64,000 bases of DNA from Patescibacteria group bacterium (GTDB lineage Bacteria; Patescibacteriota; Microgenomatia; UBA8517). The stretch lies in the NCBI GenBank assembly GCA_026416845.1, contig JAOAEL010000001.1, positions 117,940-181,939 on the forward strand. Direction: 5' to 3'. The notes below the pieces were generated by a model. It was given only the letters and a program-made list of their open reading frames with translations, made no database searches and was not told where the DNA came from. A program made the translations under genes and the position numbers. Below, piece after piece: positions 52,497 to 64,000 of this stretch. Positions within the stretch are counted from its first letter, which is position 1; every line of letters begins with the position of its first letter.

Positions 52497-53447
52497 TTAA
52501 AGAATCTCTCCAGCCTTGGCTACAATAATAATTACTATAATCATGACCAAAAAAGCAAAATGCGCAAAATTCTTGCCCCCTATACGCGGAACTTTTCTAA
52601 CTGCAATTAAAGCGCCATCAATAACTGTAGCAATAGACAATAAACCAACTACAATCAAGGAAACATTCTTTGTAGTGTCAAAAGGAGAAATCTTCAAAGA
52701 TGAATCTTTCTCAACCAAACCCGTAGAAGATGCGACATATACTACAACAGGTTCTGTTTCGCTTGGCGTATGAGTGGGAGTTGGAATAATAGTTGGACTT
52801 TTGACAGCAGTTTCAAATTTTGATTCAGGCAGTTTTTTCGAAACGCTATTTTTTTGAGCAACCGGCAATTGGGATGAAGATGCTTGAGTCCCAAAAAGCT
52901 GGACAATTATTGTAGTGTCAACTCCATTTAAATCACCTTCAACAACAGCAACGCCAATTTCCGTGTATTTTGGAGAAAGCAAATTTTCCTTGTGCGAAGG
53001 GGAAGCCATCCAAGCATCAACAGCAGAAACTGCATTGGCAAAATCGCGTGCCAAATTCTCGCCGGCATATTTGTAATTGTATCCAACCAAATTAAAAAAA
53101 TACCAAGGCTGAGTCCCATCAGGAGCCACATGCGCCCAATAATCATTGGCTAGCATATGCTCACCTTTTTTTCTGGCGGCTTCGGCAAGCAATGGGTTAT
53201 TCTTAAGCTCGGGCAAACCATTAGCCACACGCTTTTGATTAGAAATAGAAATCACTTCAGTAACAGATATTTGAGAAGCATACCCCAAAACACGAGCTCC
53301 TGTTTGCGGCAAGAAACTAATTATGGCTTGAACCAAAAGCAAAAATGCCAAAACATAAGTAAGAAAGCTAAAATGCAAAACTCTTGCTCTTTGATTGTTG
53401 CTATGATGTGGAGTGAAATAATGCAAAAAAAGGCTAACAAGTATCAT
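52497..53447 (-). CDS. CAP/SCP-domain (YkwD-like) protein with an N-terminal TM, a Pro/Thr-rich linker and a C-terminal membrane anchor
   Basis: NDYWAHVAPDGTQPWYFFNLVGYNYKYAGENLA...WMASPSHKENLLSPKYTEIGVAV is a CAP-domain signature, followed by the PTIIPTPTHTPSETEP linker and C-terminal hydrophobic helices. Confidence 0.7.
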   Translation of the reverse strand: MILVSLFLHYFTPHHSNNQRARVLHFSFLTYVLAFLLLVQAIISFLPQTGARVLGYASQISVTEVISISNQKRVANGLPELKNNPLLAEAARKKGEHMLANDYWAHVAPDGTQPWYFFNLVGYNYKYAGENLARDFANAVSAVDAWMASPSHKENLLSPKYTEIGVAVVEGDLNGVDTTIIVQLFGTQASSSQLPVAQKNSVSKKLPESKFETAVKSPTIIPTPTHTPSETEPVVVYVASSTGLVEKDSSLKISPFDTTKNVSLIVVGLLSIATVIDGALIAVRKVPRIGGKNFAHFAFLVMIIVIIIVAKAGEIL

Positions 53448-53595: not shown

Positions 53596-53630
53596 TGACA
53601 CAAAAACCGAAACAGGATTTAAATAAGTTA
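53596..53630 (+). promoter_or_regulatory. Candidate sigma70-type promoter upstream of the first TasA-like gene
   Basis: TTGACA (53596-53601), a 17-nt spacer, then TTTAAAT as a -10-like element. GGAG is 9 nt before the ATG at 53673. Confidence 0.3.
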
Positions 53631-53672
53631 GCTTTAGCTTCTTAACTGTCAACCGCTCACGGAGACATTGAG

Positions 53673-54860
53673 ATGGTTTGTACCCTTAATTTACGGTTTG
53701 TTTTTCTCATGAAGCAAATATTACTGTCCATCGCCACAATAGCCGCAATAGGAAGCATATCTTTTGGCTTGTCCTCGGCTTTTTTTTCTGACACAGAAAC
53801 TTCGCAGGCAAACTCTTTGACTGCTGGATCTTTTGACCTTTTGTTAAACGGAGGCAACAACACTTCCGCGATTGTGAACATTAATGATTTAAAACCGGGA
53901 GACAATCAAATAGTAGAAAAATCTTTGCGAATAGAAGATAACTCGGGTTATGTTTTCATGCACATAAAAGATCTGTTACCTTCTCAAGGCACGCAAACAG
54001 AACCTGAGATCTTAGAAGAAAATGGCACTCCAAAATTTGACATACAAAACTACATCAAATACGATCTTGAAGCAAACAACCAAACAATCATTTCATTAGA
54101 CAACCAAGTTTTTCTGCCGGAAGTCGTCTCTTGCTGGATACCTCTTGGAGAATTGCCAGGACAAACAAATGTTTCTGTAAAACAAAGTTTTCACTTGGAT
54201 CCGAACGTCACAAATTGGGCACAAGGAGACACGCTTAGCTTTGTTGAAGAATTTTATTCTGTTCAGAGCAGAAACAACTCCAATCCAGCTCCGCCAGTTT
54301 CTTTGACTGGAAGAATTTGGGATAAAAACATCAAAAAGTGTGTAAATTGTCCATCTGGGATTCTTTTTGCCGACGGAGTAGACAGCGCAAATACCAAACA
54401 AGGCACTTTGAAAAACGGCAATCCAATAACAGATCCAAATAGAACAAATCCTTTAAACGCAACAGGACCTAATAACTGGGTAAACGGCACAGGAACAAAC
54501 TTTTTCTCACTGGGAAAAGGAGGGTATATTACTCTGACTTTTTCATCGCCGGTGGTTAACGAACTAGGCAATGATCTTACCTTCTACGAAGCCACAAATG
54601 GCAGAGCGACATATCCTGAAGAGAAAGCGGATGTTTATGTAAGTTTTGATGGAGTCAGCTACTTTTTCATTGGCACAGTAACAAGTGAACCGGGTCCCGG
54701 TGGAGACGGCATTATGGAGTTAGATATCGCGCCTTCGGGATTGCCTTCCATAAAATATGTGCGTTTAATAGACACGACAAATTTCACTCCTCACGCAAAC
54801 AACGCTGACGGCTACGACATTGACGCGGTAAAAGCAAAAAGCGCATGTCTAAAACAATGA
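53673..54860 (+). CDS. Secreted TasA/camelysin-like protein with a SipW-cognate-class signal peptide (alternative start at 53709, MKQILLS)
   Basis: N-terminus ...LLSIATIAAIGSISFGLSSAFFSDTETSQANSLTAGSFDL carries the A-FFSDTETS hallmark of SipW-dependent signal peptides. A NINDLKPGDNQIVEKSLRIEDN core motif is shared with the two paralogs. Confidence 0.7.
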   Translation: MVCTLNLRFVFLMKQILLSIATIAAIGSISFGLSSAFFSDTETSQANSLTAGSFDLLLNGGNNTSAIVNINDLKPGDNQIVEKSLRIEDNSGYVFMHIKDLLPSQGTQTEPEILEENGTPKFDIQNYIKYDLEANNQTIISLDNQVFLPEVVSCWIPLGELPGQTNVSVKQSFHLDPNVTNWAQGDTLSFVEEFYSVQSRNNSNPAPPVSLTGRIWDKNIKKCVNCPSGILFADGVDSANTKQGTLKNGNPITDPNRTNPLNATGPNNWVNGTGTNFFSLGKGGYITLTFSSPVVNELGNDLTFYEATNGRATYPEEKADVYVSFDGVSYFFIGTVTSEPGPGGDGIMELDIAPSGLPSIKYVRLIDTTNFTPHANNADGYDIDAVKAKSACLKQ

Positions 54861-55012
54861 ACAAAAAATCAAAATGGAACAAAAAAGATTTATCAATTTT
54901 CTTAAGTTAAAAAACTTTATCATTTTTGTCACTTCCAAGTCAAAAGCTTAAAGTGGCATGATGACAAAGTTTTTGCAAATCAAAAAAAGGGGGTGAAAAA
55001 AATTAAGTTTAT

Positions 55013-55933
55013 ATGAAAAAGATTTTAATAAGTTTGTTAACAATTGGCGCGGTTGGAAGCCTTGCTTTCGGAGCAACATCGGCATTTTTCTCTGATACAG
55101 AAACGTCAACAAACAACAAAATAGTCGCTGGGAAACTAGATCTGAAAGTTGATAGCACTGCCCATTATGCTGGAATGGTATGTAAAAATAATGTCTGGAC
55201 AGATGAAGATAATGATCAAACAAACAATCCAAGACCTGAACTTCTAGGTAAAACTTGTTCGGGCACTTGGACATCAACCGATCTTGGTCCAACAAATCAG
55301 TTTTTCAATTTGTCAGATGTGAAACCGGGCGACACTGGAGAAAATACGCTCAGTCTTACGGTTTTGGACAATGATGCTTGGGCATGCATTGTAATGAAAA
55401 ATCTTAAAAATGATGAAAATCAATGTACAGAGCCTGAATCTGACCCGCAAAGCGGCAACGACACAACATGCGGAAACGATCCGGTTGGAGCAGGACTGGG
55501 CGAACTTGCTCAAAATCTGTACTTTACAGCATGGTTGGACCAGGGGAATCAAGCAGGTTGGCAAAATTCAGATAATGACAATACAAATGACGATCCGGGT
55601 GAAGGAGATAACAAGTGGCAAGGTCCAACACTTGAACCTTTGTTATTCTCAAACCAACAAGGTCCCGCGTCTGATGTCCTAAATGGAAAAGTATACGCTC
55701 TGGCTGATTCCACAAACGGGAATTATTTAGCTGGTAGCGTTACTAATTACATCGGGCTTCAGTGGTGCGCTGGACAAATGACTATATCTGGAAACACTAT
55801 CAGTTGTAACGGGGCGACAATGGGCAATAATACCCAAACCGATTCCTTGACAGCGGATGTTTCCATTTATGTGGAACAACGCAGAAACAATCCGGCATTT
55901 AAATGCGCCGGGGCGAATCTGCTTCCTAATTAA
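55013..55933 (+). CDS. Secreted TasA/camelysin-like protein with a SipW-cognate-class signal peptide (paralog 2)
   Basis: MKKILISLLTIGAVGSLAFGATSAFFSDTETSTNNKIVAGKLDLKVD, followed by FNLSDVKPGDTGENTLSLTVLDN. Confidence 0.7.
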   Translation: MKKILISLLTIGAVGSLAFGATSAFFSDTETSTNNKIVAGKLDLKVDSTAHYAGMVCKNNVWTDEDNDQTNNPRPELLGKTCSGTWTSTDLGPTNQFFNLSDVKPGDTGENTLSLTVLDNDAWACIVMKNLKNDENQCTEPESDPQSGNDTTCGNDPVGAGLGELAQNLYFTAWLDQGNQAGWQNSDNDNTNDDPGEGDNKWQGPTLEPLLFSNQQGPASDVLNGKVYALADSTNGNYLAGSVTNYIGLQWCAGQMTISGNTISCNGATMGNNTQTDSLTADVSIYVEQRRNNPAFKCAGANLLPN

Positions 55934-55952
55934 TGATTGTTTTTCCAAAAAC

Positions 55953-55982
55953 CCCTCGGGCGAAATTTGTTTCGCCCGAGGG
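55953..55982. terminator. 13-bp perfect GC-rich hairpin (CCCTCGGGCGAAA / TTTG / TTTCGCCCGAGGG) between TasA-like gene 2 and sipW; candidate attenuator or partial terminator
   Basis: Seen directly. The stem is exceptionally GC-rich for this genome. The + strand has no U-tract after it (AAAGGGAG...), but the minus-strand reading is followed by GUUUUUGG. Confidence 0.45.
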
Positions 55983-56062
55983 AAAGGGAGAATAGTAAAA
56001 CAAAAAAAATTGCAATATATCAAATTTAAAAAATTAGGCACAAAAGTTTATGAGATCAGAAT

Positions 56063-57292
56063 ATGAAATACTTTAGGAACTTTTTTTATGTTTTCAAAAA
56101 CGCAAGTTTAATTTTGCTCTTCACAGCGGCTTCATTAATAACTCTTTCACATTTTGGGTATTTAAAAACAATTAAACCATACATTGTTCAATCAGGCTCT
56201 ATGGAACCGTCAATACCAACAGGAAGCGTGATCTTTTCTCTCCATTCCAAACTTTATCAGCCGGGAGACATAATCACTTTTTTTGCAAACGGTGATCCTA
56301 AAACTGTTGTTACACACAGGCTCAATTTCAAAATTTTTAAAGACAATCAAACTATATACATCACCTCTGGAGACGCAAACGAAGACTTTGACAAATGGGA
56401 AGTGAGATATGAGCATATAGTTGGCAAAGTTGTGGCAATCATACCACATCTTGGGCATGTGATCGATTTTGCCAAAACACCACAAGGATTTATAGCTCTT
56501 GTGGTTGTTCCTGCAACAATCGTAATCTATGAAGAACTAAAAAACCTCCTGCGAGAAATTGGCAAGCTCGTTTTGGCAATCAAAATTTTTTTTAAAAAGA
56601 AAAAGGAAGAAAATTCAAGTCTATTTAATTTCGCAAAAAGCGTCAATCTAAATAGAATTTTTGTTTTTGTGCCAATTTTAGGAGTGTTTGTCTTTATAAC
56701 CGCAAATTCCGGAGGATACTTTTTAGATACAGAAAAAAGCGCAGGGAACGTTATAGGAGTTGCAACATCGTATAATTCGCCAACAATAACACCTACCAAC
56801 TCAAACTCACCCTCGCCAACCATCTCTCCTACAAGCACACTACCACCCACAAACACAATAACCGCCACAGCAACGCCAACAACAACTCCCACAATTTCTC
56901 CTATGGTTAAGCTAAACGAAGCCGCGCCTGCAACTAATCCCGAATGGGTAGAAATTTACAACACATACCCTACTGCCGATTTTCTTAAAAATTACTGGCT
57001 TGACGATGACACTAGTTTTACAAGCGACTCAGGAAACTCCCCAAAAGTGCTAATGTCATCGCTTGACACATCGAACACTTTATTCCCAACCATAGACCTT
57101 ACAAATCCAATTTTTAACAATACCGGAGATTTTATAGTTATTTTTGATAACTTGGGAAATCTTGTGGACTCGGTTAATTACACCAGTAATTTTGGCACTA
57201 AATCCATCGGTCGAGAAATTGACGGAACAGGAATATGGAAATTCCCTTGCGCTAATTCAACAAAAGGAGCAAGCAACAACACAAAATGTTAA
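56063..57292 (+). CDS. sipW: SipW-type (archaeal/ER-type) signal peptidase I fused through a Pro/Thr-rich linker to a C-terminal lamin-tail domain (LTD)
   Basis: TM helix, then catalytic-Ser box QSGSMEPSIPTGSVIF, His box TVVTHRL, second TM GFIALVVVPATIVIY, linker TPTNSNSPSPTISPTSTLPPTNTITATATPTTTPTISP, then LNEAAPATNPEWVEIYN...GDFIVIFDNLGNLVDSVNY, which matches the LTD consensus. Confidence 0.8.
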   Translation: MKYFRNFFYVFKNASLILLFTAASLITLSHFGYLKTIKPYIVQSGSMEPSIPTGSVIFSLHSKLYQPGDIITFFANGDPKTVVTHRLNFKIFKDNQTIYITSGDANEDFDKWEVRYEHIVGKVVAIIPHLGHVIDFAKTPQGFIALVVVPATIVIYEELKNLLREIGKLVLAIKIFFKKKKEENSSLFNFAKSVNLNRIFVFVPILGVFVFITANSGGYFLDTEKSAGNVIGVATSYNSPTITPTNSNSPSPTISPTSTLPPTNTITATATPTTTPTISPMVKLNEAAPATNPEWVEIYNTYPTADFLKNYWLDDDTSFTSDSGNSPKVLMSSLDTSNTLFPTIDLTNPIFNNTGDFIVIFDNLGNLVDSVNYTSNFGTKSIGREIDGTGIWKFPCANSTKGASNNTKC

Positions 57293-58311
57293 AAAAGATT
57301 TTTCTATTATCAATATCGACAGCGGCAATTTTAACAGTGATCTTTTGGCACAAAAACACGACAAAAAATGTCTACGCAATAGATCCTCTGATAATAACAT
57401 ACAACAATTCGCCCACACCAAATCCAGTTTTTAATGTGGCAAATTTCTTACCCGGAGACAATAAGATCGAGAAAATTAAAGTAAAAAACAATTTGCCAAG
57501 CGGAAGCTTCGGAGTCTCGGTGGATGGGATATTGGATCAAGAACAAAAAAACTTGGCAGAAATACTACAAATTACTATCACAGAAGTTGGTTTTGGGGAT
57601 ATTTATGGAGGTTCAACTGGCAAAAAAACTCTTAAACAGTTTCTGAACTCGCCACCAATTAACTTGGGAGTATTCCCATCAGGAAGTGAGAAAGAATATG
57701 AATACAAAATATTTTTCCCACATGAATCAGGCAACGAATATAAAAACGGGCATGTTGTCTTTACGCTAATTTTCAACAATTTTATAACAATTGATCTTCC
57801 AAAAGAATGCGCTCACTTGGCAAATCAAATTGTCAACGTAATTGAAGGCACTGAAGGCAATGACAACATACATTCAACCTACCTTAGCGACCTAATACTT
57901 GCCAAAGGAGGTAACGATAAAATCAGAGCTTCAAGCGGAAGCGATTGTATTGTAGCCGGAGACGGCAATGACACAATAGACGCAGGCACAGGCAATGAAG
58001 TTATTTTAGGCGGAGGAGGAAATGACAACATAAGAGGTGGTACAGGAAACGACACTATCTATGGAGGAAGCGGAAATGACAGAATCGACGCGGGAAGCGG
58101 AGACGATGTAGTCTATGGCGATGATGGAGATGACAACATAGAAGGCGGAAGCGACAAAGATAAACTATATGGCGGCAAAGGCAAAGATGACATAAGAGGC
58201 GGAAGCAACAACGACCTTTTAGACGGAGGAGAGGATTTTGACAAATTAAATGGAAATTCCGGCCAAGACACGTGCAAATTCGGCGAAGTGCTTAGTTCTT
58301 GTGAACTGTAA
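57286..58311 (+). CDS. Secreted TasA-like core protein with C-terminal RTX (hemolysin-type) calcium-binding repeats
   Basis: Signal anchor MLKKIFLLSISTAAILTVIFW; FNVANFLPGDNKIEKIKVKNN core shared with the two TasA-like paralogs; then 12 tandem GGxGxDxxx nonapeptides (GGNDKIRAS ... SNNDLLDGG). ATGTTAA overlap with the sipW stop. Confidence 0.7.
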   Translation: MLKKIFLLSISTAAILTVIFWHKNTTKNVYAIDPLIITYNNSPTPNPVFNVANFLPGDNKIEKIKVKNNLPSGSFGVSVDGILDQEQKNLAEILQITITEVGFGDIYGGSTGKKTLKQFLNSPPINLGVFPSGSEKEYEYKIFFPHESGNEYKNGHVVFTLIFNNFITIDLPKECAHLANQIVNVIEGTEGNDNIHSTYLSDLILAKGGNDKIRASSGSDCIVAGDGNDTIDAGTGNEVILGGGGNDNIRGGTGNDTIYGGSGNDRIDAGSGDDVVYGDDGDDNIEGGSDKDKLYGGKGKDDIRGGSNNDLLDGGEDFDKLNGNSGQDTCKFGEVLSSCEL

Positions 58312-58470
58312 ATATCATGAAAAGTAAAATTTTATTGTTTGAATCATATTTTAAAAAATTTTTTATATATTTTCTCATTTTAACCTGCTTTAATTTATTT
58401 GGCGCTTATGCCGTCTAATAAATTTTGTCAGCAGGATTAAGATTAAAAAGAAAGGAGGTGAAAAGAGAAA

Positions 58471-59061
58471 ATGTTACTCAAAAAGATAACAAGCAGTTTG
58501 GCAACATCTGGCGCTTTGTTGGTGTTGGCAACTGGAGCGGTATTTGCAAGCACAGATGTTACCATCTCGGGAAACGGAGAAGATTCAGTAAACACTGTGA
58601 AAGTTAACTTAACTAACACAACATCCGTTTACCAAAGCAATGCAACAAATGTCAAAAACGATGTCTCATCAAGTGCGTCAACCGGCTCAAACACCATTTC
58701 AAAAACAACAAATGGTAATGCCAAGATAGACACTGGGGACGCGACAAGCATGGTGTCTGTTATGGTTGCCGGCGGGAATAATCACCTGTCTAGCAATCCA
58801 TGCGGATGTGTAAATGGCGAAACGACAGTGACCGTCAAAAATAACGGAGCTGACTCAACCAACAAAGTAAAAGTGAAGTCTAAAAACACTTCACAACAAG
58901 GACAGCACGGAGAAACAAATGTATCAACATCTGTTTCTTCTAAAGCCAAAACCGGTAAAAATAAGGTTAAAAAAGCCACCGGTGGCAATTCTGAAGTCAA
59001 AACAGGTGACAGCGAAAGCGCCGTGTCTGTAATAGTAACCGGAGGCCATAATTATTTGTAA
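58471..59061 (+). CDS. Secreted two-repeat protein of an unrecognised N/T/S-rich repeat family (TGDA family)
   Basis: Signal peptide MLLKKITSSLATSGALLVLATGAVFA. Two ~80-aa repeats, each ending ...TG.N.....T.GN.....TGD..S.VSV.V.GG.N.L, plus a CGC pair. Strong RBS AAAGGAGGTG before the ATG. Confidence 0.6.
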   Translation: MLLKKITSSLATSGALLVLATGAVFASTDVTISGNGEDSVNTVKVNLTNTTSVYQSNATNVKNDVSSSASTGSNTISKTTNGNAKIDTGDATSMVSVMVAGGNNHLSSNPCGCVNGETTVTVKNNGADSTNKVKVKSKNTSQQGQHGETNVSTSVSSKAKTGKNKVKKATGGNSEVKTGDSESAVSVIVTGGHNYL

Positions 59062-59082
59062 TGAAAGCCTAACGGTTTAATC

Positions 59083-59122
59083 AAAAAACCTCCTGCCTAA
59101 GCGTAGGGGGTTTTTTATTTTT
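59083..59122. terminator. Bidirectional rho-independent terminator between the convergent 58471(+) and sortase(-) genes
   Basis: AAAAAA-CCTCCTGC-CTAA-GCGTAGGGGG-TTTTTTATTTTT: an 8-bp stem (with G-U pairs) flanked by an A-run on one side and a T-run on the other. Confidence 0.55.
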
Positions 59123-59129
59123 AGATAAA

Positions 59130-59681
59130 CTAGTCGACGGACAAAACAACAACCAATCTCTTGGAATCTTTATAGCCGCTACAAGTATACAAGGTAAGCT
59201 TTTTTTCTTCGCTCGATGGCGCAATAATTTTTGTATCCGTTGGCAAAACTTCCAAAACATCATCAACTTTATATTCAAACCAAGTTTTATTAGTTAAAAC
59301 AAAAACAGAGTCTCCTTTTTTTATATACTTTAAATTGCCAAACAAATTATCTTTTGCATGCCCAAATATGACCACATTGCCAATTTCTCCTGGATATGCG
59401 GACCCTACACCCCATCCAGCTTTATCATCAAACACCTCCCAATAACCACTTTTTACAAAAGATACTTGGACATTAACATTTAGTTTAAGATCTGGAATAA
59501 GTATTTTTTGCGGGATTTTTTCAGCGTCAATTTCATTGATTAAAGCAAATTCTTCCAGTGTTGCAACTTGATTAACAGATAAAACTGAAGCGTCCGCTTT
59601 TGGTTTAAACAAAAGCAACAAAACGCCAAGGGCAAAAAGACAAATGCCTATTGTAATTTTAGAAGGGTAATTTATTCTCAT
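59130..59681 (-). CDS. Sortase (cysteine transpeptidase), with an N-terminal membrane anchor
   Basis: Catalytic His in VIFGHAKDNLFGN, TLxTC-type Cys in KLTLYTCSG, Arg in RLVVVLS. The start is taken at the second Met (MRINYPSK); 59708 is also possible. Confidence 0.8.
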   Translation of the reverse strand: MRINYPSKITIGICLFALGVLLLLFKPKADASVLSVNQVATLEEFALINEIDAEKIPQKILIPDLKLNVNVQVSFVKSGYWEVFDDKAGWGVGSAYPGEIGNVVIFGHAKDNLFGNLKYIKKGDSVFVLTNKTWFEYKVDDVLEVLPTDTKIIAPSSEEKKLTLYTCSGYKDSKRLVVVLSVD

Positions 59682-60810
59682 TTTCACTCGCTTTTCCCGC
59701 CGAATCAATTATCATACCCAAACCCAAAACCAAAAACAAAATTCCAAACAAATAATTTAGATCCAAACTTTTTTCGCTTGAAGTTTTTGAAAGGCCCAAA
59801 ATTTCTCCGCCGCCAATGGCATTTTCGCCCAAAAAACTGGTTTTGCTTAAAAAATTTGCGTTATTGTTGTTTGCAGATCCGTCGTTTGGATTTTTAATGA
59901 TTGAATCTTCAGGAACAGTCGGAGGGTCATCAGGATCATCCCCATTATCAAAAAAACAACAATTAAAACTAATAAAATTTGAATTTATATAATCATTTCT
60001 TAAAAGAATATCTAAAAAAATATCGCCTGTAATTATTGCCGAATCTCCCAAATTGCCGCCAATGAAATTTTCACCACTATTTGCGTCAACAAAAACTTCA
60101 TTTAGAATCACTGAACTATTCTCAACAAAAACATTATTTTTTAAATTTTTGAAATTGTTTGCGCTACTCCCACCGACATAAGCGTTGTCAATAAACCTGA
60201 AACTTGAAGCATCTTCTGAAAGATTGGCAGGCAAACTAGAAATAGATGAATTAATTGGACCATTTTTTACAGATGTTACAACTTTTACATCCCCTGTTGT
60301 TATTTTTGTATTGCGAGAATTATCATTTGCTTTATTGAGACCAGTGTTTGCAACCCCAACAATTTTAGTTTTAATTACAGCGCTATTTTGAGAAACAAAA
60401 TTATTTGACAAATTGCTTGAAGAACTAACTGTATTTGTTGAATTAGAACCATTGTTATTAATGTTAACCTGCTGGTTTATCTTGGCAGTTTCACAACAAT
60501 TATCTTTAAAACCATTTTGATTTGATAAATTAATCGCGGTCTGACTAATTTTCGCGTCGCCAGTTTTTACGTTAACTTCATCTCCACTTTGATCAATTAA
60601 ATTTGATCCGGTGTTTGTATTAGAAAAGACATCGTTTTGAATAGATGAGTTGTTTGTTTGCAAAACATTTACCGAATTTGACAATTGAACAATCGCCTGA
60701 CTTGAAGAATCGGAACCGTTATCAGATATCGTCAACTCATACCCAAGCGCACACTTTGGTTGACATAAAAATATGAAAAAAAAGATTAGAAAAACAAAAA
60801 ATTTAGACAT
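59659..60810 (-). CDS. Secreted repeat protein, TGDA family (paralog)
   Basis: Signal peptide MSKFFVFLIFFFIFLCQPKCALG. Repeats ISDNGSDSS...NTNTGSNLIDQSGDEVNVKTGDAKISQ and NNGSNSTNTV...ANTGLNKANDNSRNTKITTGDVKVV. Has a CC pair and a C-terminal hydrophobic segment without LPxTG. Confidence 0.6.
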   Translation of the reverse strand: MSKFFVFLIFFFIFLCQPKCALGYELTISDNGSDSSSQAIVQLSNSVNVLQTNNSSIQNDVFSNTNTGSNLIDQSGDEVNVKTGDAKISQTAINLSNQNGFKDNCCETAKINQQVNINNNGSNSTNTVSSSSNLSNNFVSQNSAVIKTKIVGVANTGLNKANDNSRNTKITTGDVKVVTSVKNGPINSSISSLPANLSEDASSFRFIDNAYVGGSSANNFKNLKNNVFVENSSVILNEVFVDANSGENFIGGNLGDSAIITGDIFLDILLRNDYINSNFISFNCCFFDNGDDPDDPPTVPEDSIIKNPNDGSANNNNANFLSKTSFLGENAIGGGEILGLSKTSSEKSLDLNYLFGILFLVLGLGMIIDSAGKASENENKLPF

Positions 60811-60872
60811 AGCAAAAATTGCGTTCTGAGGAAATCTGAGATTAATACTTTTGAGGATTTTCCTTTAAAAAA

Positions 60873-63221
60873 TCACTTTCTCGAGAACATCGCAAGTATA
60901 GCGTTTTTGTTTTTTGCAATAAATAAACCCGTGAAAATTGGGATTAATGTCAGAAGCCATGCAAGATTTATGTTGATAGTTTTTTTCTCATTTCTGATTT
61001 CAGCACTTTCAACAAAGGCGTCTACATCACCAACAATCCCAGTTTCGCTTTGATCTTTAGAACCTGAAAATGCCAAAACTGATTTGTTGGAATTACTAGC
61101 TTTTTTCGATATCGCTTTATTTGAAAAAATCTTTTTATTTGATTCTTCCTTCATATTTGTAACTTCATTATAAACCTGAAAACCGGAAGTGTTTGGGTTT
61201 GCAAGAGTGCTACTTTTGTCTTTTTCGGCTACTCCTCCGCGTCCACTATCGTTAACTGAAGATGGCTTCGAACCAACATAATCAGGAGAGACAAAATTAC
61301 CAACCCAACTGCCAAACACATTTACAACTGTCACGAATAATCTGCCGCTACCGACTATATTGTTATTTACAAAGTTAACCAAATTGGCAACAATGTTTGC
61401 GTCTCCGGTAACAATATTTGTATTGCCACCGGTATTTTTGCTTGCCTGATTTTTGCCAGTATTAGCCGAAAGATTCAAATTATTAGTGACATTTGCAGTG
61501 TTTGATTGAACAATTGTATTGTTTGCGATTGAAGAGCTAAAAGCATTGTTAAATGAATTTGCGCCATTGCCATTATTTGAAGCATAAATTTCTCCATTTT
61601 CATCAACTAAAAACTCAATCCCATTTGATCCAGCCAAATTTGCGCCTTCAGGAGACCCCAATATTCTACCAACCCAATTTCCAGCCTGATTAATAAGAAC
61701 AAGCCACCAATCCCCGCCAACTATATTTGTGTTTGCAACATTGATAACTTGCGCAGTGACATTTGCATTCCCTGAATTAACAGTGTTATTGCCATCTGTA
61801 TTTTTACTCACTTCGTTTTCACCCGTGTTGGCGTCAAAAAACAAGTTGTTGTTTATATTGGCATTATTAAACTGATACAACTGATCGTTTGAACTGACAC
61901 TTGCATCCGCAGTGTTTGTAGAGTGTGCGCCATTGCCTGTATTTTGAACATTGCCAGACAAAAGACAACAAGGCAAACCAAATCCGAAAGGAGCAATTAT
62001 GTCTCCAACCAAATTGCCAAAAATATTTACAACACCATAAATCACATTGCCAGCTATGTTATTGTTTACAAAAGTCAAAGCGTTTGCAGAAACATTCGCA
62101 TCGCCAGTGGTAATTGTCACATCTCCGCCAGTATTTTTATCCGCATAATTTTTGCCGGTATTGGAATCAAGCTTAAGTGTGTTCAAAACCACAGCATCGT
62201 TAGTCTGAAATTTATTTGTGTTTAGCGCATAATCAAGCAAAGCGTTATTCGAAGAATTCGCGCCATTTTGATGGTTGGCAACATTACCTCCACCCAAAGT
62301 TGAACAGTTAACTATGCACGCATTGCCAAAATCCAAAACAATATCCCCAATGTGATCATCTTCAACATTAAACTCTGCAATAACCACCCCATCAACATTT
62401 GTGTTGACAGAAGTAATAATAGTGCCAGTTGTATTTGCGTTGCCTGTTTTAATGTTTACATTGCCAACATTTTTGGAAGCGGAATTTCCGCCAGTGTTAG
62501 TATCTTGAGAAACTGAATTTATAACAACAGCTTTATTGTCTTGAATTGTGTTTGAATTATTTTCAGAAACAAAAGCTCCATTGTTTGCAGAACCAGATCC
62601 ATTGCCTTCATTAACAACAGCAGAAGCACCACCTGCCAAGCCGGTAGGCACTGCCGATAAATTGCTGTTTGCAACCACAGCTCCGGTGACAGAATTTGTC
62701 GCATTGCCAGTTCTTAGATCAGTTTTACCCGAATTTCCATCTGAGTTTTGTCCCCCTGTAGAATTATCAACAGCCAAACTTTTAGGAGAAACTGAAGAAG
62801 ACTGCTGGTTCTCAGCAGGTGAACTTGAATTATCTGAAGCGGCAAAATCAGAGTTAATTGATCTATCTCTTTTTGTTTTTTCATTTGAACTTTCTGAATT
62901 TTTTGGTTTGGAATTATTACCAGATTGATCACCTTGAGAAGAACCAGAATTTTGGCTATCTGGCAAATTATTTAGACTGCCAGAGGGAATGGTAGGAGCA
63001 GTCGGGGCAACAGGAGGAATTGGAGCCGCAGGTGGAGTTGGAGACAAAGGCGGAGATGGCGCGTTGGGAGCCATAGGCGCCGACGGAGCAACCGGAGCGC
63101 TTGGCACTGATGGAATTTCAGAAGCCAAAACCCCTGCCACTTGCACAAATAAAATTACAAATATAGTAAAAAGGGCAATTATTCTTTTAGTTATACTTTT
63201 TATAAATTTTATAAATTGCAT
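60873..63221 (-). CDS. Large (782 aa) secreted surface protein: Pro-rich N-terminal tract, four or five ~110-aa TGDA-family repeats, and a C-terminal hydrophobic anchor
   Basis: Signal peptide, then PSVPSAPVAPSAPMAPNAPSPPLSPTPPAAPIPPVAPTAPTIPSG. Repeats such as LDSNTGKNYADKNTGGDVTITTGDANVSANALTFVNNNIAGNV and LSANTGKNQASKNTGGNTNIVTGDANIVANLVNFVNNNIVG. C-terminal LAWLLTLIPIFTGLFIAKNKN. Confidence 0.65.
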   Translation of the reverse strand: MQFIKFIKSITKRIIALFTIFVILFVQVAGVLASEIPSVPSAPVAPSAPMAPNAPSPPLSPTPPAAPIPPVAPTAPTIPSGSLNNLPDSQNSGSSQGDQSGNNSKPKNSESSNEKTKRDRSINSDFAASDNSSSPAENQQSSSVSPKSLAVDNSTGGQNSDGNSGKTDLRTGNATNSVTGAVVANSNLSAVPTGLAGGASAVVNEGNGSGSANNGAFVSENNSNTIQDNKAVVINSVSQDTNTGGNSASKNVGNVNIKTGNANTTGTIITSVNTNVDGVVIAEFNVEDDHIGDIVLDFGNACIVNCSTLGGGNVANHQNGANSSNNALLDYALNTNKFQTNDAVVLNTLKLDSNTGKNYADKNTGGDVTITTGDANVSANALTFVNNNIAGNVIYGVVNIFGNLVGDIIAPFGFGLPCCLLSGNVQNTGNGAHSTNTADASVSSNDQLYQFNNANINNNLFFDANTGENEVSKNTDGNNTVNSGNANVTAQVINVANTNIVGGDWWLVLINQAGNWVGRILGSPEGANLAGSNGIEFLVDENGEIYASNNGNGANSFNNAFSSSIANNTIVQSNTANVTNNLNLSANTGKNQASKNTGGNTNIVTGDANIVANLVNFVNNNIVGSGRLFVTVVNVFGSWVGNFVSPDYVGSKPSSVNDSGRGGVAEKDKSSTLANPNTSGFQVYNEVTNMKEESNKKIFSNKAISKKASNSNKSVLAFSGSKDQSETGIVGDVDAFVESAEIRNEKKTININLAWLLTLIPIFTGLFIAKNKNAILAMFSRK

Positions 63222-63297
63222 ATAATTTTTTTGTATTTTTTAGTTTCTTTACTTTAAAAAATTTTTAAACTTTATTTTTTATCTTCTACCTTCTGGT

Positions 63298-63335
63298 TTT
63301 GGGTGATCCGTCGAAGTGCAAACGAATCACCCAAA
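63298..63335. repeat. Perfect 10-bp inverted repeat TTTGGGTGAT ... ATCACCCAAA with an 18-nt loop, between two repeat-protein genes
   Basis: Read directly from the sequence. It lies 3' of the 63354 gene and 5' of the 60873 gene. No U-tract on either strand, so it is more likely an operator or RNA-processing hairpin than a classical terminator. Confidence 0.4.
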
Positions 63336-63353
63336 TACCTTATAAAGGCTGGT

Positions 63354-64000
63354 CTACCCCATAAGGAATTCCAAAAGATCTCTCAAATTAAACGAAATGT
63401 TTAAATTGAAACCATACATTGGAAATTCCCATTCAGGAGTTTCACCATAAACATTGGAATTACCACCGTTTGTAACTTCCACATAGCTTTCGGCATCACC
63501 GGTTTTGATATAAGGATCTGATCCATCATAACCAGTTCCTTTCTTGGATTCGTTATAACCAGTGCCTGCGTCAGCATAAACTAAATTGTCGACACCGTAA
63601 CCGCCATTTGATTGAAAAACGCCAAGAGAGTCATCAAAGACTGCTTCAATGTCGTTTCTCGAATCATAACCATTTCCATGGATTTTTGCCAAAACATCAA
63701 AAAGACATCCGCAATCAACGTCTGCCCAATTGAAGTTTGTCATTGTGTCAACAACCACATCCACAGTGGCATCTCCTGTCTCTATGACAAAGTCACCACC
63801 TGTGTTTTTGTTTGCTTTATTGGAACCAGTTCCGGCATCAACATCAACTTTGTTGTAAACAGAAGCTGAGTTGTTTTGCACAACATTTAGATCGTGACCA
63901 AAGTCTAGATCCAAATCGTTTCTGCTATCAGCGCCGTTTCCAACAACCCAAGCGCTAAGAGTTTTGGCTCCGTTTCCGTTAGCACCAACTCTTGCAGAAT
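63354..64000 (-). CDS. Partial CDS (C-terminal part; N-terminus lies beyond the window end): secreted repeat protein, TGDA family
   Basis: The frame is open to the window edge: ...NGNGAKTLSAWVVGNGADSRNDLDLDFGHD is upstream of the ORF-track TTG start. Repeats DAGTGSNKANKNTGGDFVIETGDATVDVVV and DAGTGYNESKKGTGYDGSDPYIKTGDAESYVEV, plus a CGC pair. Confidence 0.55.
   Translation of the reverse strand, partial: SARVGANGNGAKTLSAWVVGNGADSRNDLDLDFGHDLNVVQNNSASVYNKVDVDAGTGSNKANKNTGGDFVIETGDATVDVVVDTMTNFNWADVDCGCLFDVLAKIHGNGYDSRNDIEAVFDDSLGVFQSNGGYGVDNLVYADAGTGYNESKKGTGYDGSDPYIKTGDAESYVEVTNGGNSNVYGETPEWEFPMYGFNLNISFNLRDLLEFLMG

Follow-up and report, generated by a model that had tools for sequence, protein, structure and literature searches.

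The window analysed here is a 64,000-nt stretch of contig JAOAEL010000001.1 from a Microgenomates-type Patescibacteria genome, and the region studied lies between 53.6 and 64.0 kb, with a G+C content of 30–41%. It contains ten relevant genes, all found at the coordinates given below, nine of which (g1 to g9 in order of position) encode TasA-like secreted proteins, a signal peptidase, a secreted RTX protein, a sortase and a set of secreted proteins built from a repeat that we call REP. The locus is probably best explained as two neighbouring, separately conserved cell-surface modules, a TasA/SipW-type cassette (g1 to g4) and a REP/sortase operon (g5 to g9). Its features are as follows.

52497..53447, minus strand: CAP/YkwD-like secreted or membrane protein flanking the locus (PF00188, E 4e-15; TIGR02909, E 3e-29).
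53709..54860, plus strand: g1, TasA/CalY-like subunit with SSAFFSDTETS and an extra C-terminal domain (PF12389, 34.8 bits).
55013..55933, plus strand: g2, predicted TasA-superfamily fibre subunit (TIGR04088, 32.5 bits; PF12389, 23.0 bits).
55952..55983, no strand assigned: GC-rich hairpin directly 3' of g2, 14-bp stem with 9 GC pairs.
56063..57292, plus strand: g3, archaeal/SipW-type signal peptidase I with an LTD domain (TIGR02228, 82.4 bits; PF00932, 34.8 bits).
57286..58311, plus strand: g4, secreted RTX protein with a divergent TasA-like N-terminal domain (PF00353, E 3e-29).
58471..59061, plus strand: g5 (REP-D), small secreted protein with two REP units, convergent on the sortase operon.
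59083..59116, no strand assigned: terminator-like hairpin between convergent g5 and g6, 14-bp stem, flanked by A-runs and, on the opposite side, T-runs.
59130..59708, minus strand: g6, membrane-anchored sortase with TLYTC (PF04203, 85.4 bits; TIGR01076, 59.3 bits).
59659..60810, minus strand: g7 (REP-B), signal peptide, three REP units, EILG-LSKTS and a transmembrane segment.
60873..63221, minus strand: g8 (REP-A), signal peptide, Pro-rich N-terminus, four to five REP units, ININLAW, a transmembrane segment and a basic tail.
63354..64000, minus strand: g9 (REP-C), 5' end cut by the end of the window, at least two REP units and a conserved tail, no transmembrane segment.

The products of g1 and g2 share an identical AFFSDTETS core after a hydrophobic leader, as an earlier inspection of the letters alone (the sequence-only reading) had reported, and in g2 the last residues of the signal peptide are TSA, with FFSDTETST after them. 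Both match the camelysin/TasA family PF12389 above its cutoff of 22.5 bits, g1 over profile positions 2–74 and g2, at 23.0 bits, over positions 4–50. When the suggested check against TIGR04088, the model of the SipW-cognate signal peptide (cutoff 19 bits), was made, g2 passed with 32.5 bits and g1, with its identical core, fell just under the cutoff at 16.8 bits. Because the PF12389 matches do not reach beyond the signal peptide and first strands, evidence from the fold was required for the core of these proteins. From 70 homologues, AlphaFold2 produced a confident monomer model of g2 with a predicted local distance difference test score (pLDDT) of 87.1, in which residues 25–33, the FFSDTETST segment, are disordered. 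In the Foldseek comparison with the PDB that had been proposed for the TasA-like core, the single match of this model under E 1e-3 was the TasA fibre 8AUR, and its best solved matches were TasA and archaeal TasA-superfamily filaments. These matches are donor-strand-complemented filaments (PMC9245690; bioRxiv 10.64898/2026.01.04.697558). PDB sequence searches with g1 and g2 returned nothing relevant. The product of g2 is likely the main shaft protein.

The additional C-terminal domain of g1 (about 180 aa, 54315–54857, with the motif ...ADGYDIDAVKA) had no Pfam match even at E 10 and recurs joined to TasA-like N-terminal domains in 17 loci; it could be an adhesin or lectin-like tip domain. The hairpin behind g2 lacks a T-run on the plus strand. 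Placed after the gene of the major subunit, it could stabilise or attenuate the mRNA, and it may set the ratio of the major subunit to the products of the downstream genes. A promoter scan of the region gave a signal no higher than that of shuffled controls.

The Pfam name of PF12389, Peptidase_M73 (camelysin), and the GenBank name 'CalY family' might suggest that the TasA-like proteins are secreted camelysin-type metalloproteases and not fibre subunits. We find this hardly credible and dropped the protease identity for g1, g2 and g4, since the HExxH motif is absent from all three, g2 having a single His. Moreover, the best structural matches of g2 are filament subunits, and several paralogues accompany a dedicated peptidase, as is the case in fibre operons.

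The genes g1 and g2 both lie upstream of the peptidase gene g3 and do not flank it as had been claimed; only g4 lies downstream. Against TIGR02228, the model of the archaeal-type signal peptidase I, g3 scored 82.4 bits (cutoff 51.85), and against the SipW equivalog model NF046067 it scored 83.9 bits, under the 190-bit cutoff. The assignment as a sipW-type peptidase thus stands for the family and fails for the equivalog: g3 is a SipW relative, not a SipW equivalog. Its Ser46, His85, Asp104 and Asp110 are invariant in 27 relatives. The LTD domain (aa 282–374, nt 56906–57184), for which a search had been recommended, was detected at 34.8 bits, a marginal score against the threshold of 34.3, and a precomputed PF00932 annotation is found on most homologues of g3.

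The peptidase occupies aa 1 to about 175 of g3 and contains the first two transmembrane segments (TM1 and TM2); a basic cytoplasmic loop and a third hydrophobic segment follow, and three hydrophobic segments were found in 25 of the 27 relatives. The loop between TM2 and the third segment has nine Lys/Arg and three Asp/Glu residues, a balance that fits a cytoplasmic n-region of a signal peptide. After the third segment comes a motif resembling those of SipW substrates (aa 199–231, nt 56657–56755, GGYFLDTEKSAGN), which a Pro/Thr/Ser linker joins to the LTD domain. Among SipW open reading frames (ORFs) of at least 300 aa, 28 of 31 have such an internal SipW-type signal-peptide segment past the C-terminal helix of the peptidase, a stretch in which A[F/Y]FSDxExSxxNxFxAG comes after a hydrophobic core; the highest score against a profile of TasA leaders was 28.5 bits. 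The internal motifs are about 50% identical to the N-terminal motifs of TasA-like proteins. Their similarity was 0.51 within loci and 0.48 between loci (permutation p ~2e-4), and co-variation of the two was dropped as a candidate signal; as the effect is small and confounded by relatedness, the difference shows motif sharing only.

The gene order in other lineages suggests how this architecture may have arisen. Parcubacteria-type loci have two separate genes, the first for a peptidase of about 180 aa and the next for an LTD protein, and 21 of 35 stand-alone LTD ORFs have a SipW-type signal at the N-terminus. In Microgenomates-type loci, the window included, peptidase and LTD domain form a single ORF. 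The simplest reading is that sipW was fused to the downstream gene of a substrate, and that cleavage would then release a donor-like strand together with the Pro/Thr linker and the LTD domain. TapA of Bacillus subtilis is an immunoglobulin (Ig)-fold substrate of SipW that starts TasA filaments by donating its N-terminus (Roske et al. 2023, PMC10151520), and by analogy the released LTD protein would resemble TapA.

It is also possible, if doubtful, that the fused protein does not process itself and that the third helix and the FxDxExS motif serve only to tether the LTD ectodomain to the peptidase. The LTD domain would then hold the enzyme at the site of assembly, or occupy or regulate its own active site, and would never join the fibre. 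This would agree with the degenerate motif of g3 (GGYFLDTEKS, 10.8 bits) and with the stability of the fusion across many Microgenomates-type genomes. A role independent of peptidase activity, reported for the C-terminus of B. subtilis SipW, would also fit. A tether would leave unexplained that other lineages encode the same LTD protein separately, with the N-terminal signal just described, that the motif keeps the same positions as in true substrates, and that the topology places motif and active site on the same side of the membrane. We prefer the fusion of enzyme and substrate. In one surveyed locus (L082, 15802–16860, minus strand) the LTD domain at the end of a SipW-type peptidase is replaced by one REP unit, behind a Pro/Thr linker; the leader motif of the TasA-like neighbour is AVYTSQATAAA, and the segment after the transmembrane part of the peptidase is similar, SLFVAQATICG.

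The start of g4 overlaps the end of g3 by 7 nt. Its product has a PGD motif in the N-terminal domain and, in the C-terminal part, an RTX beta-roll for calcium binding, with a Cys pair at the end, and the proposed RTX assignment was borne out by PF00353 (100.9 bits, six stretches, nonapeptide threshold passed). The signal peptide is of the ordinary AxA type, unlike the SipW-type signals of g1 and g2, and a SipW-type signal is absent from all 16 TasA4-RTX ORFs of the g4 family. Of the three TasA/camelysin paralogues that had been claimed, g1 and g2 stand; g4 itself matches no TasA model, and PF12389 is matched by 8 of its 16 orthologues (best E 4.9e-6). An hhalign comparison of g4 with the g2 family aligned only 23 columns around a shared FxxxxxPGD motif, with a probability of 65%. 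We regard g4 as probably a calcium-dependent accessory or terminal subunit.

To survey the peptidase, one genome per species was searched with a profile of 27 SipW-LTD proteins, and the best 80 loci, picked by likeness to the window peptidase, were examined in six frames. Relatives of the peptidase were present in at least 521 species-representative genomes. The best 80 loci came nearly all from Patescibacteria, on both the Microgenomates and the Parcubacteria side, plus one Bathyarchaeota contig, and the genes around the peptidase were TasA-like in 79, LTD in 50, g4-type in 52, RTX in 15, CAP in 19, sortase in 13, any REP in 20 and multi-repeat REP in 12 of them. In the suggested survey of co-occurrence, TasA-like genes thus accompany the peptidase in nearly all loci (79/80), and sortase (13/80) and multi-repeat REP genes (12/80) in a minority. 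With at least 521 genomes and 79 of 80 loci, the TasA/SipW part is a standard cassette of the candidate phyla radiation (CPR), not a rarity. The archaeal contig (L048, Candidatus Bathyarchaeota PIXZ01000069.1) has the same arrangement, two TasA-like genes followed by the peptidase, which hints at transfer between domains or shared ancestry.

The claim that the arrangement is unusual is accordingly not supported, given the numbers above, the database names and published work (PMC9245690, PMC11580942). In GenBank, g1 is a 'CalY family protein' (MCX7928202.1, 383 aa) and g3 a 'signal peptidase I', g4 and g5 are each a 'hypothetical protein', and a 99%-identical copy of g2 is named 'CalY family protein'; relatives of g2 are called 'TasA family protein' or 'SipW-dependent-type signal peptide-containing protein'. 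PF12389 in Patescibacteria was already noted by Wang et al. 2022 (PMC9245690). In the literature we found no paper describing the TasA/SipW cassette or the REP/sortase module in CPR bacteria.

The likeness of the cassette to tapA-sipW-tasA of B. subtilis (8AUR; PMC10151520; PMC9674648), proposed from the sequence, is upheld by the model matches, by the TasA and archaeal filament folds and by the presence of the cassette in 79 of 80 loci. In both systems a dedicated peptidase of the endoplasmic reticulum/archaeal type is encoded beside jelly-roll subunits with a cognate signal peptide, and a TasA-like N-terminal strand is joined to an Ig-like fold in an accessory protein; the best fold match of g2 is also TasA. 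In contrast to B. subtilis, the accessory domain of the window is an LTD domain fused to the peptidase, two paralogues of shaft type are present, one of them extended by a C-terminal domain, a TasA-like RTX protein with an ordinary signal peptide is added, the peptidase scores 83.9 bits against a 190-bit SipW equivalog cutoff, and the host is an ultrasmall CPR bacterium.

The archaeal TasA-superfamily filaments include the AbpA bundling pili (7UEG), the Saci_0406 threads (7PNB), AbpX, Tafi and the cannulae (PMC9245690; bioRxiv 10.64898/2026.01.04.697558). The window genes are predicted to share their principle of donor-strand complementation, and in the archaeal loci, too, a signal peptidase I is often co-located, calcium occurs in some members and there are tip and anchor accessories. 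The differences are that calcium binding in the window relies on an appended RTX domain and not on interface sites, that the peptidase carries a fused substrate and that the lineage is bacterial (CPR).

A comparison within the CPR concerns the Pam pili of Ca. Mycosynbacter amalyticus (bioRxiv 10.64898/2026.03.03.709456), which are likewise CPR-specific filaments with Ig-like/beta-sandwich subunits and donor-strand exchange, and Pam homologues have been reported in Microgenomatia. By description the two systems are set apart, as Pam pilins are two-domain proteins whose linker provides the donor strand, and they depend on PapD-like membrane-anchored chaperones. The Pam paper contains neither TasA nor signal peptidase, and names sortase once, in a list of pilus types in its Introduction. 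No Pam-type chaperone-like gene was recognised by Pfam in the window.

The second module is built from the REP unit of about 80 aa, with the consensus GNGxxSxN ... QxNxAxVxN ... NTGxNxAxxNTGG ... TGDA ... NxN. Four or more secreted proteins of an unfamiliar repeat had been recognised before, and four are indeed there: g5, with two copies, g7 with three, g8 with four to five and g9 with at least two. Ten units of the window were aligned, an eleventh and weaker unit of g8 being left out, and showed invariant N, G, S, TG, N and G positions. The REP family has no Pfam match even at E 10 and no PDB sequence relative, two REP profiles having been searched. A profile of the window repeats found at least 3,106 clusters (50% identity) at E <=1e-3, in two main size classes of about 400–440 aa and about 720–800 aa.

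The window proteins differ in their ends. In g8 the Pro-rich N-terminal stretch reads xAPxAP, and the ININLAW motif (aa 751–755, nt 60957–60971) precedes the transmembrane segment and basic tail; this INLAW-transmembrane-basic ending was seen in 40 of 69 large REP family representatives. The tail of g9 is the conserved NISFNLRDLLEFLMG, without a transmembrane segment. Paired Cys residues (CxC or CC) stand between REP units, namely CGC at aa 109–111 of g5, NCCE in g7, LPCC in g8 and DCGC in g9, and the REP unit within LTD proteins is likewise enclosed by a conserved Cys pair; such pairs may be disulfides or metal sites, which fits the reported enrichment of CPR bacteria in thiol-disulfide oxidoreductases (PMC6744442).

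For the REP-centred survey, metagenomes were scanned with a tight REP alignment, which mainly caught REP-C-type genes, and 43 loci of at least 8 kb were obtained. They have a conserved operon order: REP-C (about 420 aa, tail ...NISFNLxDLLxxL), REP-A (about 740 aa, with the Pro-rich N-terminus and the INLAW ending), REP-B (about 380 aa), sortase and a convergent small REP gene. At least two multi-repeat REP genes were present in 41 of the 43 loci and a sortase in 30, and in 11 listed loci the gene after the sortase is a convergent REP ORF with two repeats, about 200 aa long. The order g9-g8-g7-g6-g5 in the window is exactly this one, as is the order in L011, and by this synteny g5 was assigned to the sortase/REP operon and not to the TasA operon. 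The hairpin between g5 and g6 probably acts in both directions.

Several other genes were seen around these operons. A CAP/YkwD-like protein with C-terminal membrane segments adjoins both modules, in 19 of the 80 peptidase-centred and 11 of the 43 REP-centred loci (e.g., L001, L092, L107, L120). An LTD protein of 260–300 aa with a signal peptide and a C-terminal anchor, independent of SipW, is encoded near REP operons in 11 of 43 loci, at a distance of about 5 kb on the upstream side (upstream of REP-C in, e.g., L100, L107, L126, L130, L134 and L142). A small DUF2292 protein is encoded beside REP genes in two unrelated loci (L001, 9271–9453; L082, 9416–9631). The 'LTD' and 'TasA4' labels that jackhmmer gave to pure REP proteins in L082–L084 were rejected as artefacts of REP-containing fusions in the query sets.

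Sortases are enriched in Microgenomates. The search for a sortase that had been advised for the window identified g6, with 85.4 bits to PF04203 (cutoff 26.6) and 59.3 bits to TIGR01076 (cutoff 39.35), the catalytic motif TLYTC, the His of an FGH motif and an N-terminal transmembrane segment. It scored under the cutoff of every model for classes A–F and GN, the best being class E with 53.2 bits against 160. Upstream of it, g7 ends in EILG-LSKTS, with LSKTS at aa 340–344 (nt 59779–59793), followed by the transmembrane segment and tail, and the candidate sorting peptide is EILGLSKTSSEK.

In other loci a REP ORF that directly precedes a sortase gene has either LPATG, LPITG or LPISG or a motif of the class [IV]LGLSxT[SG], then a transmembrane segment and tail; further REP motifs are LPMTG, LPATG and LPASG in L001, L002 and L011, and LSFTG was also seen. 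EILGLSKTSS of g7 falls in the class [I/V]LGLSxT[S/G], which suggests that LGLSxT[S/G] is a variant recognition motif of sortase. As sorting motifs stand directly upstream of sortase genes, REP-B proteins are likely substrates of the adjoining sortase, and g7 is presumed to be the substrate of g6. None of the TasA-like proteins of the window has a sorting signal.

As in Gram-positive sortase systems, a TLxTC sortase is thus encoded beside an upstream candidate substrate with signal peptide, repeats, low-complexity spacer, motif, transmembrane segment and tail, and many orthologues have a canonical LPATG. Unlike those systems, only one of the four REP paralogues of the window carries the putative signal, the motif is LSKTS and the sortase lies outside the defined classes. 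No pilin motif was found in the window proteins, no search aimed at pilin motifs having been made. Some single-repeat REP proteins (L083, 3220–3627; L084, within 1040–2935) end in VPEF...TM...KKRF (TM, transmembrane segment), similar to PEF-CTERM, and in L084 an Exosortase_EpsH gene (2003–2935) stands downstream of the REP protein with one 153-aa ORF in between. This recalls the PEP-CTERM/PEF-CTERM systems with exosortase or archaeosortase, although the partner enzyme in the window is a sortase. With PEF-CTERM-like REP proteins near an exosortase, REP domains are seemingly displayed by whichever sorting enzyme is present.

Whether the two modules form one system was weighed from both sides. 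In the window they are convergent transcription units with the terminator-like hairpin between them. The sequence-only reading had proposed one dedicated machine for fibre or adhesin assembly, and an integrated machine would have TasA-like fibres, REP proteins and sortase as obligate parts of one assembly line, in which, for example, the sortase anchors TasA-type fibres to the wall via REP proteins. The contiguous cluster in the window, L001, L011, L103 and L124 speaks for such a machine, with the whole set in one cluster on a 402-kb contig in L001. So do the fusions of REP units to the components of the cassette: in six loci a g4-type TasA-like domain is followed by an LTD domain with an inserted REP unit (E 1e-15 to 3e-7), and in L082 the SipW-linker-REP fusion described above was detected with E 1.4e-13.

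A precedent also exists in Clostridium perfringens, where a sortase gene (srtB) adjoins the sipW-bsaA-bsaB-bsaC operon as it does the TasA-like operon here, and one TasA-like protein, BsaB, has an LPXTG in most strains (PMC7395162, PMC11580942). In the window, by contrast, the proteins with a possible sorting signal are REP proteins and not TasA-like ones, and a VWA protein is absent. The lack of a sorting signal on the TasA-like proteins, the convergent orientation with the hairpin, the 40 of 43 REP-centred loci without the cassette and the 68 of 80 peptidase-centred loci without multi-repeat REP genes within 10 kb make a single obligate machine unlikely in our judgement. REP and sortase genes form a self-standing operon, and the adjacency of the modules is a recurrent minority arrangement.

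At the other extreme, the modules could be functionally unrelated and adjacent only since genes for secreted proteins cluster in a surface-protein island. Their adjacency is a minority arrangement from both sides, their relative order and orientation vary between loci, and CAP genes and glycosyltransferases cluster here too, all of which an island would explain. An island would hardly account for the independent domain fusions that join REP to LTD, TasA-like and SipW proteins, nor for the recurrence of the adjacency in distant CPR classes (Woesebacteria, Moranbacteria and Giovannonibacteria), and we hold it to be rather improbable.

Multi-repeat REP genes stand in 12 of the 80 peptidase-centred loci, against about 2% expected per random 20-kb window in a 1-Mb genome (binomial p ~7e-8), where the 80 loci were chosen by likeness of the peptidase and are not phylogenetically independent and the 2% baseline is a rough estimate. 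The fusion of REP into TasA-like/LTD proteins and onto SipW elsewhere indicates a functional tie between the modules. The two separately conserved modules probably cooperate at the cell surface and are not one obligate machine.

Drawing on gene content, family and fold assignments, synteny counts, motifs and fusions, we propose a plausible model for the locus. In the first module, the TasA-superfamily fibre cassette, SipW-type signal peptides would direct the export of g1 and g2, and the dedicated Ser/His/Asp peptidase g3 would cleave both. The two would polymerise as the freed N-terminal strand FFSDTETS... inserts into the next subunit, as we infer from TasA, AbpA and the thread filaments. 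The gene g3 would be a fusion of sipW and what in other CPR lineages is its downstream neighbour, adding a helix, an FxDxExSxxN motif, a linker and an Ig-like LTD domain, and its peptidase would release its own LTD protein, which, like TapA, would start or cap the fibre through a donor strand and an Ig fold and may serve as an adhesive fibre end. The g4 protein would be a divergent TasA-like subunit, calcium-dependent and accessory or terminal. In the second module, comprising g9, g8, g7 and g6 with convergent g5, the sortase would attach REP-B (g7) to the cell wall via a variant LSxT[S/G] signal, REP-A (g8) would be held in the membrane by its INLAW-containing tail, and REP-C (g9) and REP-D (g5) would be secreted. 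Together the REP proteins probably form a surface coat or fibril of repeat proteins.

Several points weigh against this account, in addition to the limits of the counts given above. The internal motif of g3 itself is weak (10.8 bits, independent E-value 0.15), g4 has no TasA match of its own, and the tail of g7 after the transmembrane segment is only weakly basic, LSKTS being a candidate and not a proven sortase motif. The AlphaFold2 model of g5 was unusable (pLDDT 48 with a 48-row alignment) and hints at an all-beta structure only. From the REP side, the TasA cassette was present in only 3 of 43 loci (L103, L124 and L130).

Elsewhere in the window, a long run of genes on the minus strand (7956–39431) encodes many paralogous membrane proteins of about 500–600 aa. 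Three of eight tested matched PMT_2, a GT-C glycosyltransferase family, and a 783-aa protein matched YfhO; the other tested paralogues had no Pfam match. These proteins could glycosylate the Ser/Thr/Pro-rich linkers of the neighbouring surface proteins.

The components of the locus are largely recognisable and partly annotated automatically, and the cassette is widespread, so that the locus is less exceptional than had been held. As far as we found, the fusion of enzyme and substrate, the REP family with its sortase operon and variant motif, and the fusions of REP with the fibre cassette are undescribed. More tentatively, and with a good deal of doubt, the long CPR 'signal peptidases' might be polyproteins of enzyme and substrate that free their own C-terminal LTD or REP domains as TapA-like initiators or adhesins, with REP as a surface polymer not recognised before, anchored by sortase or exosortase, on which TasA-type fibres dock, the whole being a main attachment apparatus of ultrasmall bacteria of the Microgenomates type.

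The prevailing view is that Patescibacteria live attached to other microbes. Their surface filaments have so far been tied only to type IV pili and, in a 2026 preprint, to Pam pili. The present results add a TasA-superfamily fibre cassette with its own peptidase across the radiation, the peptidase being found in at least 521 species-level genomes and often fused to what is seemingly its own TapA-like substrate. They also add a candidate sortase substrate gene with the sortase directly after it, the substrate belonging to an unannotated family of at least 3,106 clusters and bearing a variant motif, as well as REP units that in other genomes are fused to components of the fibre cassette.

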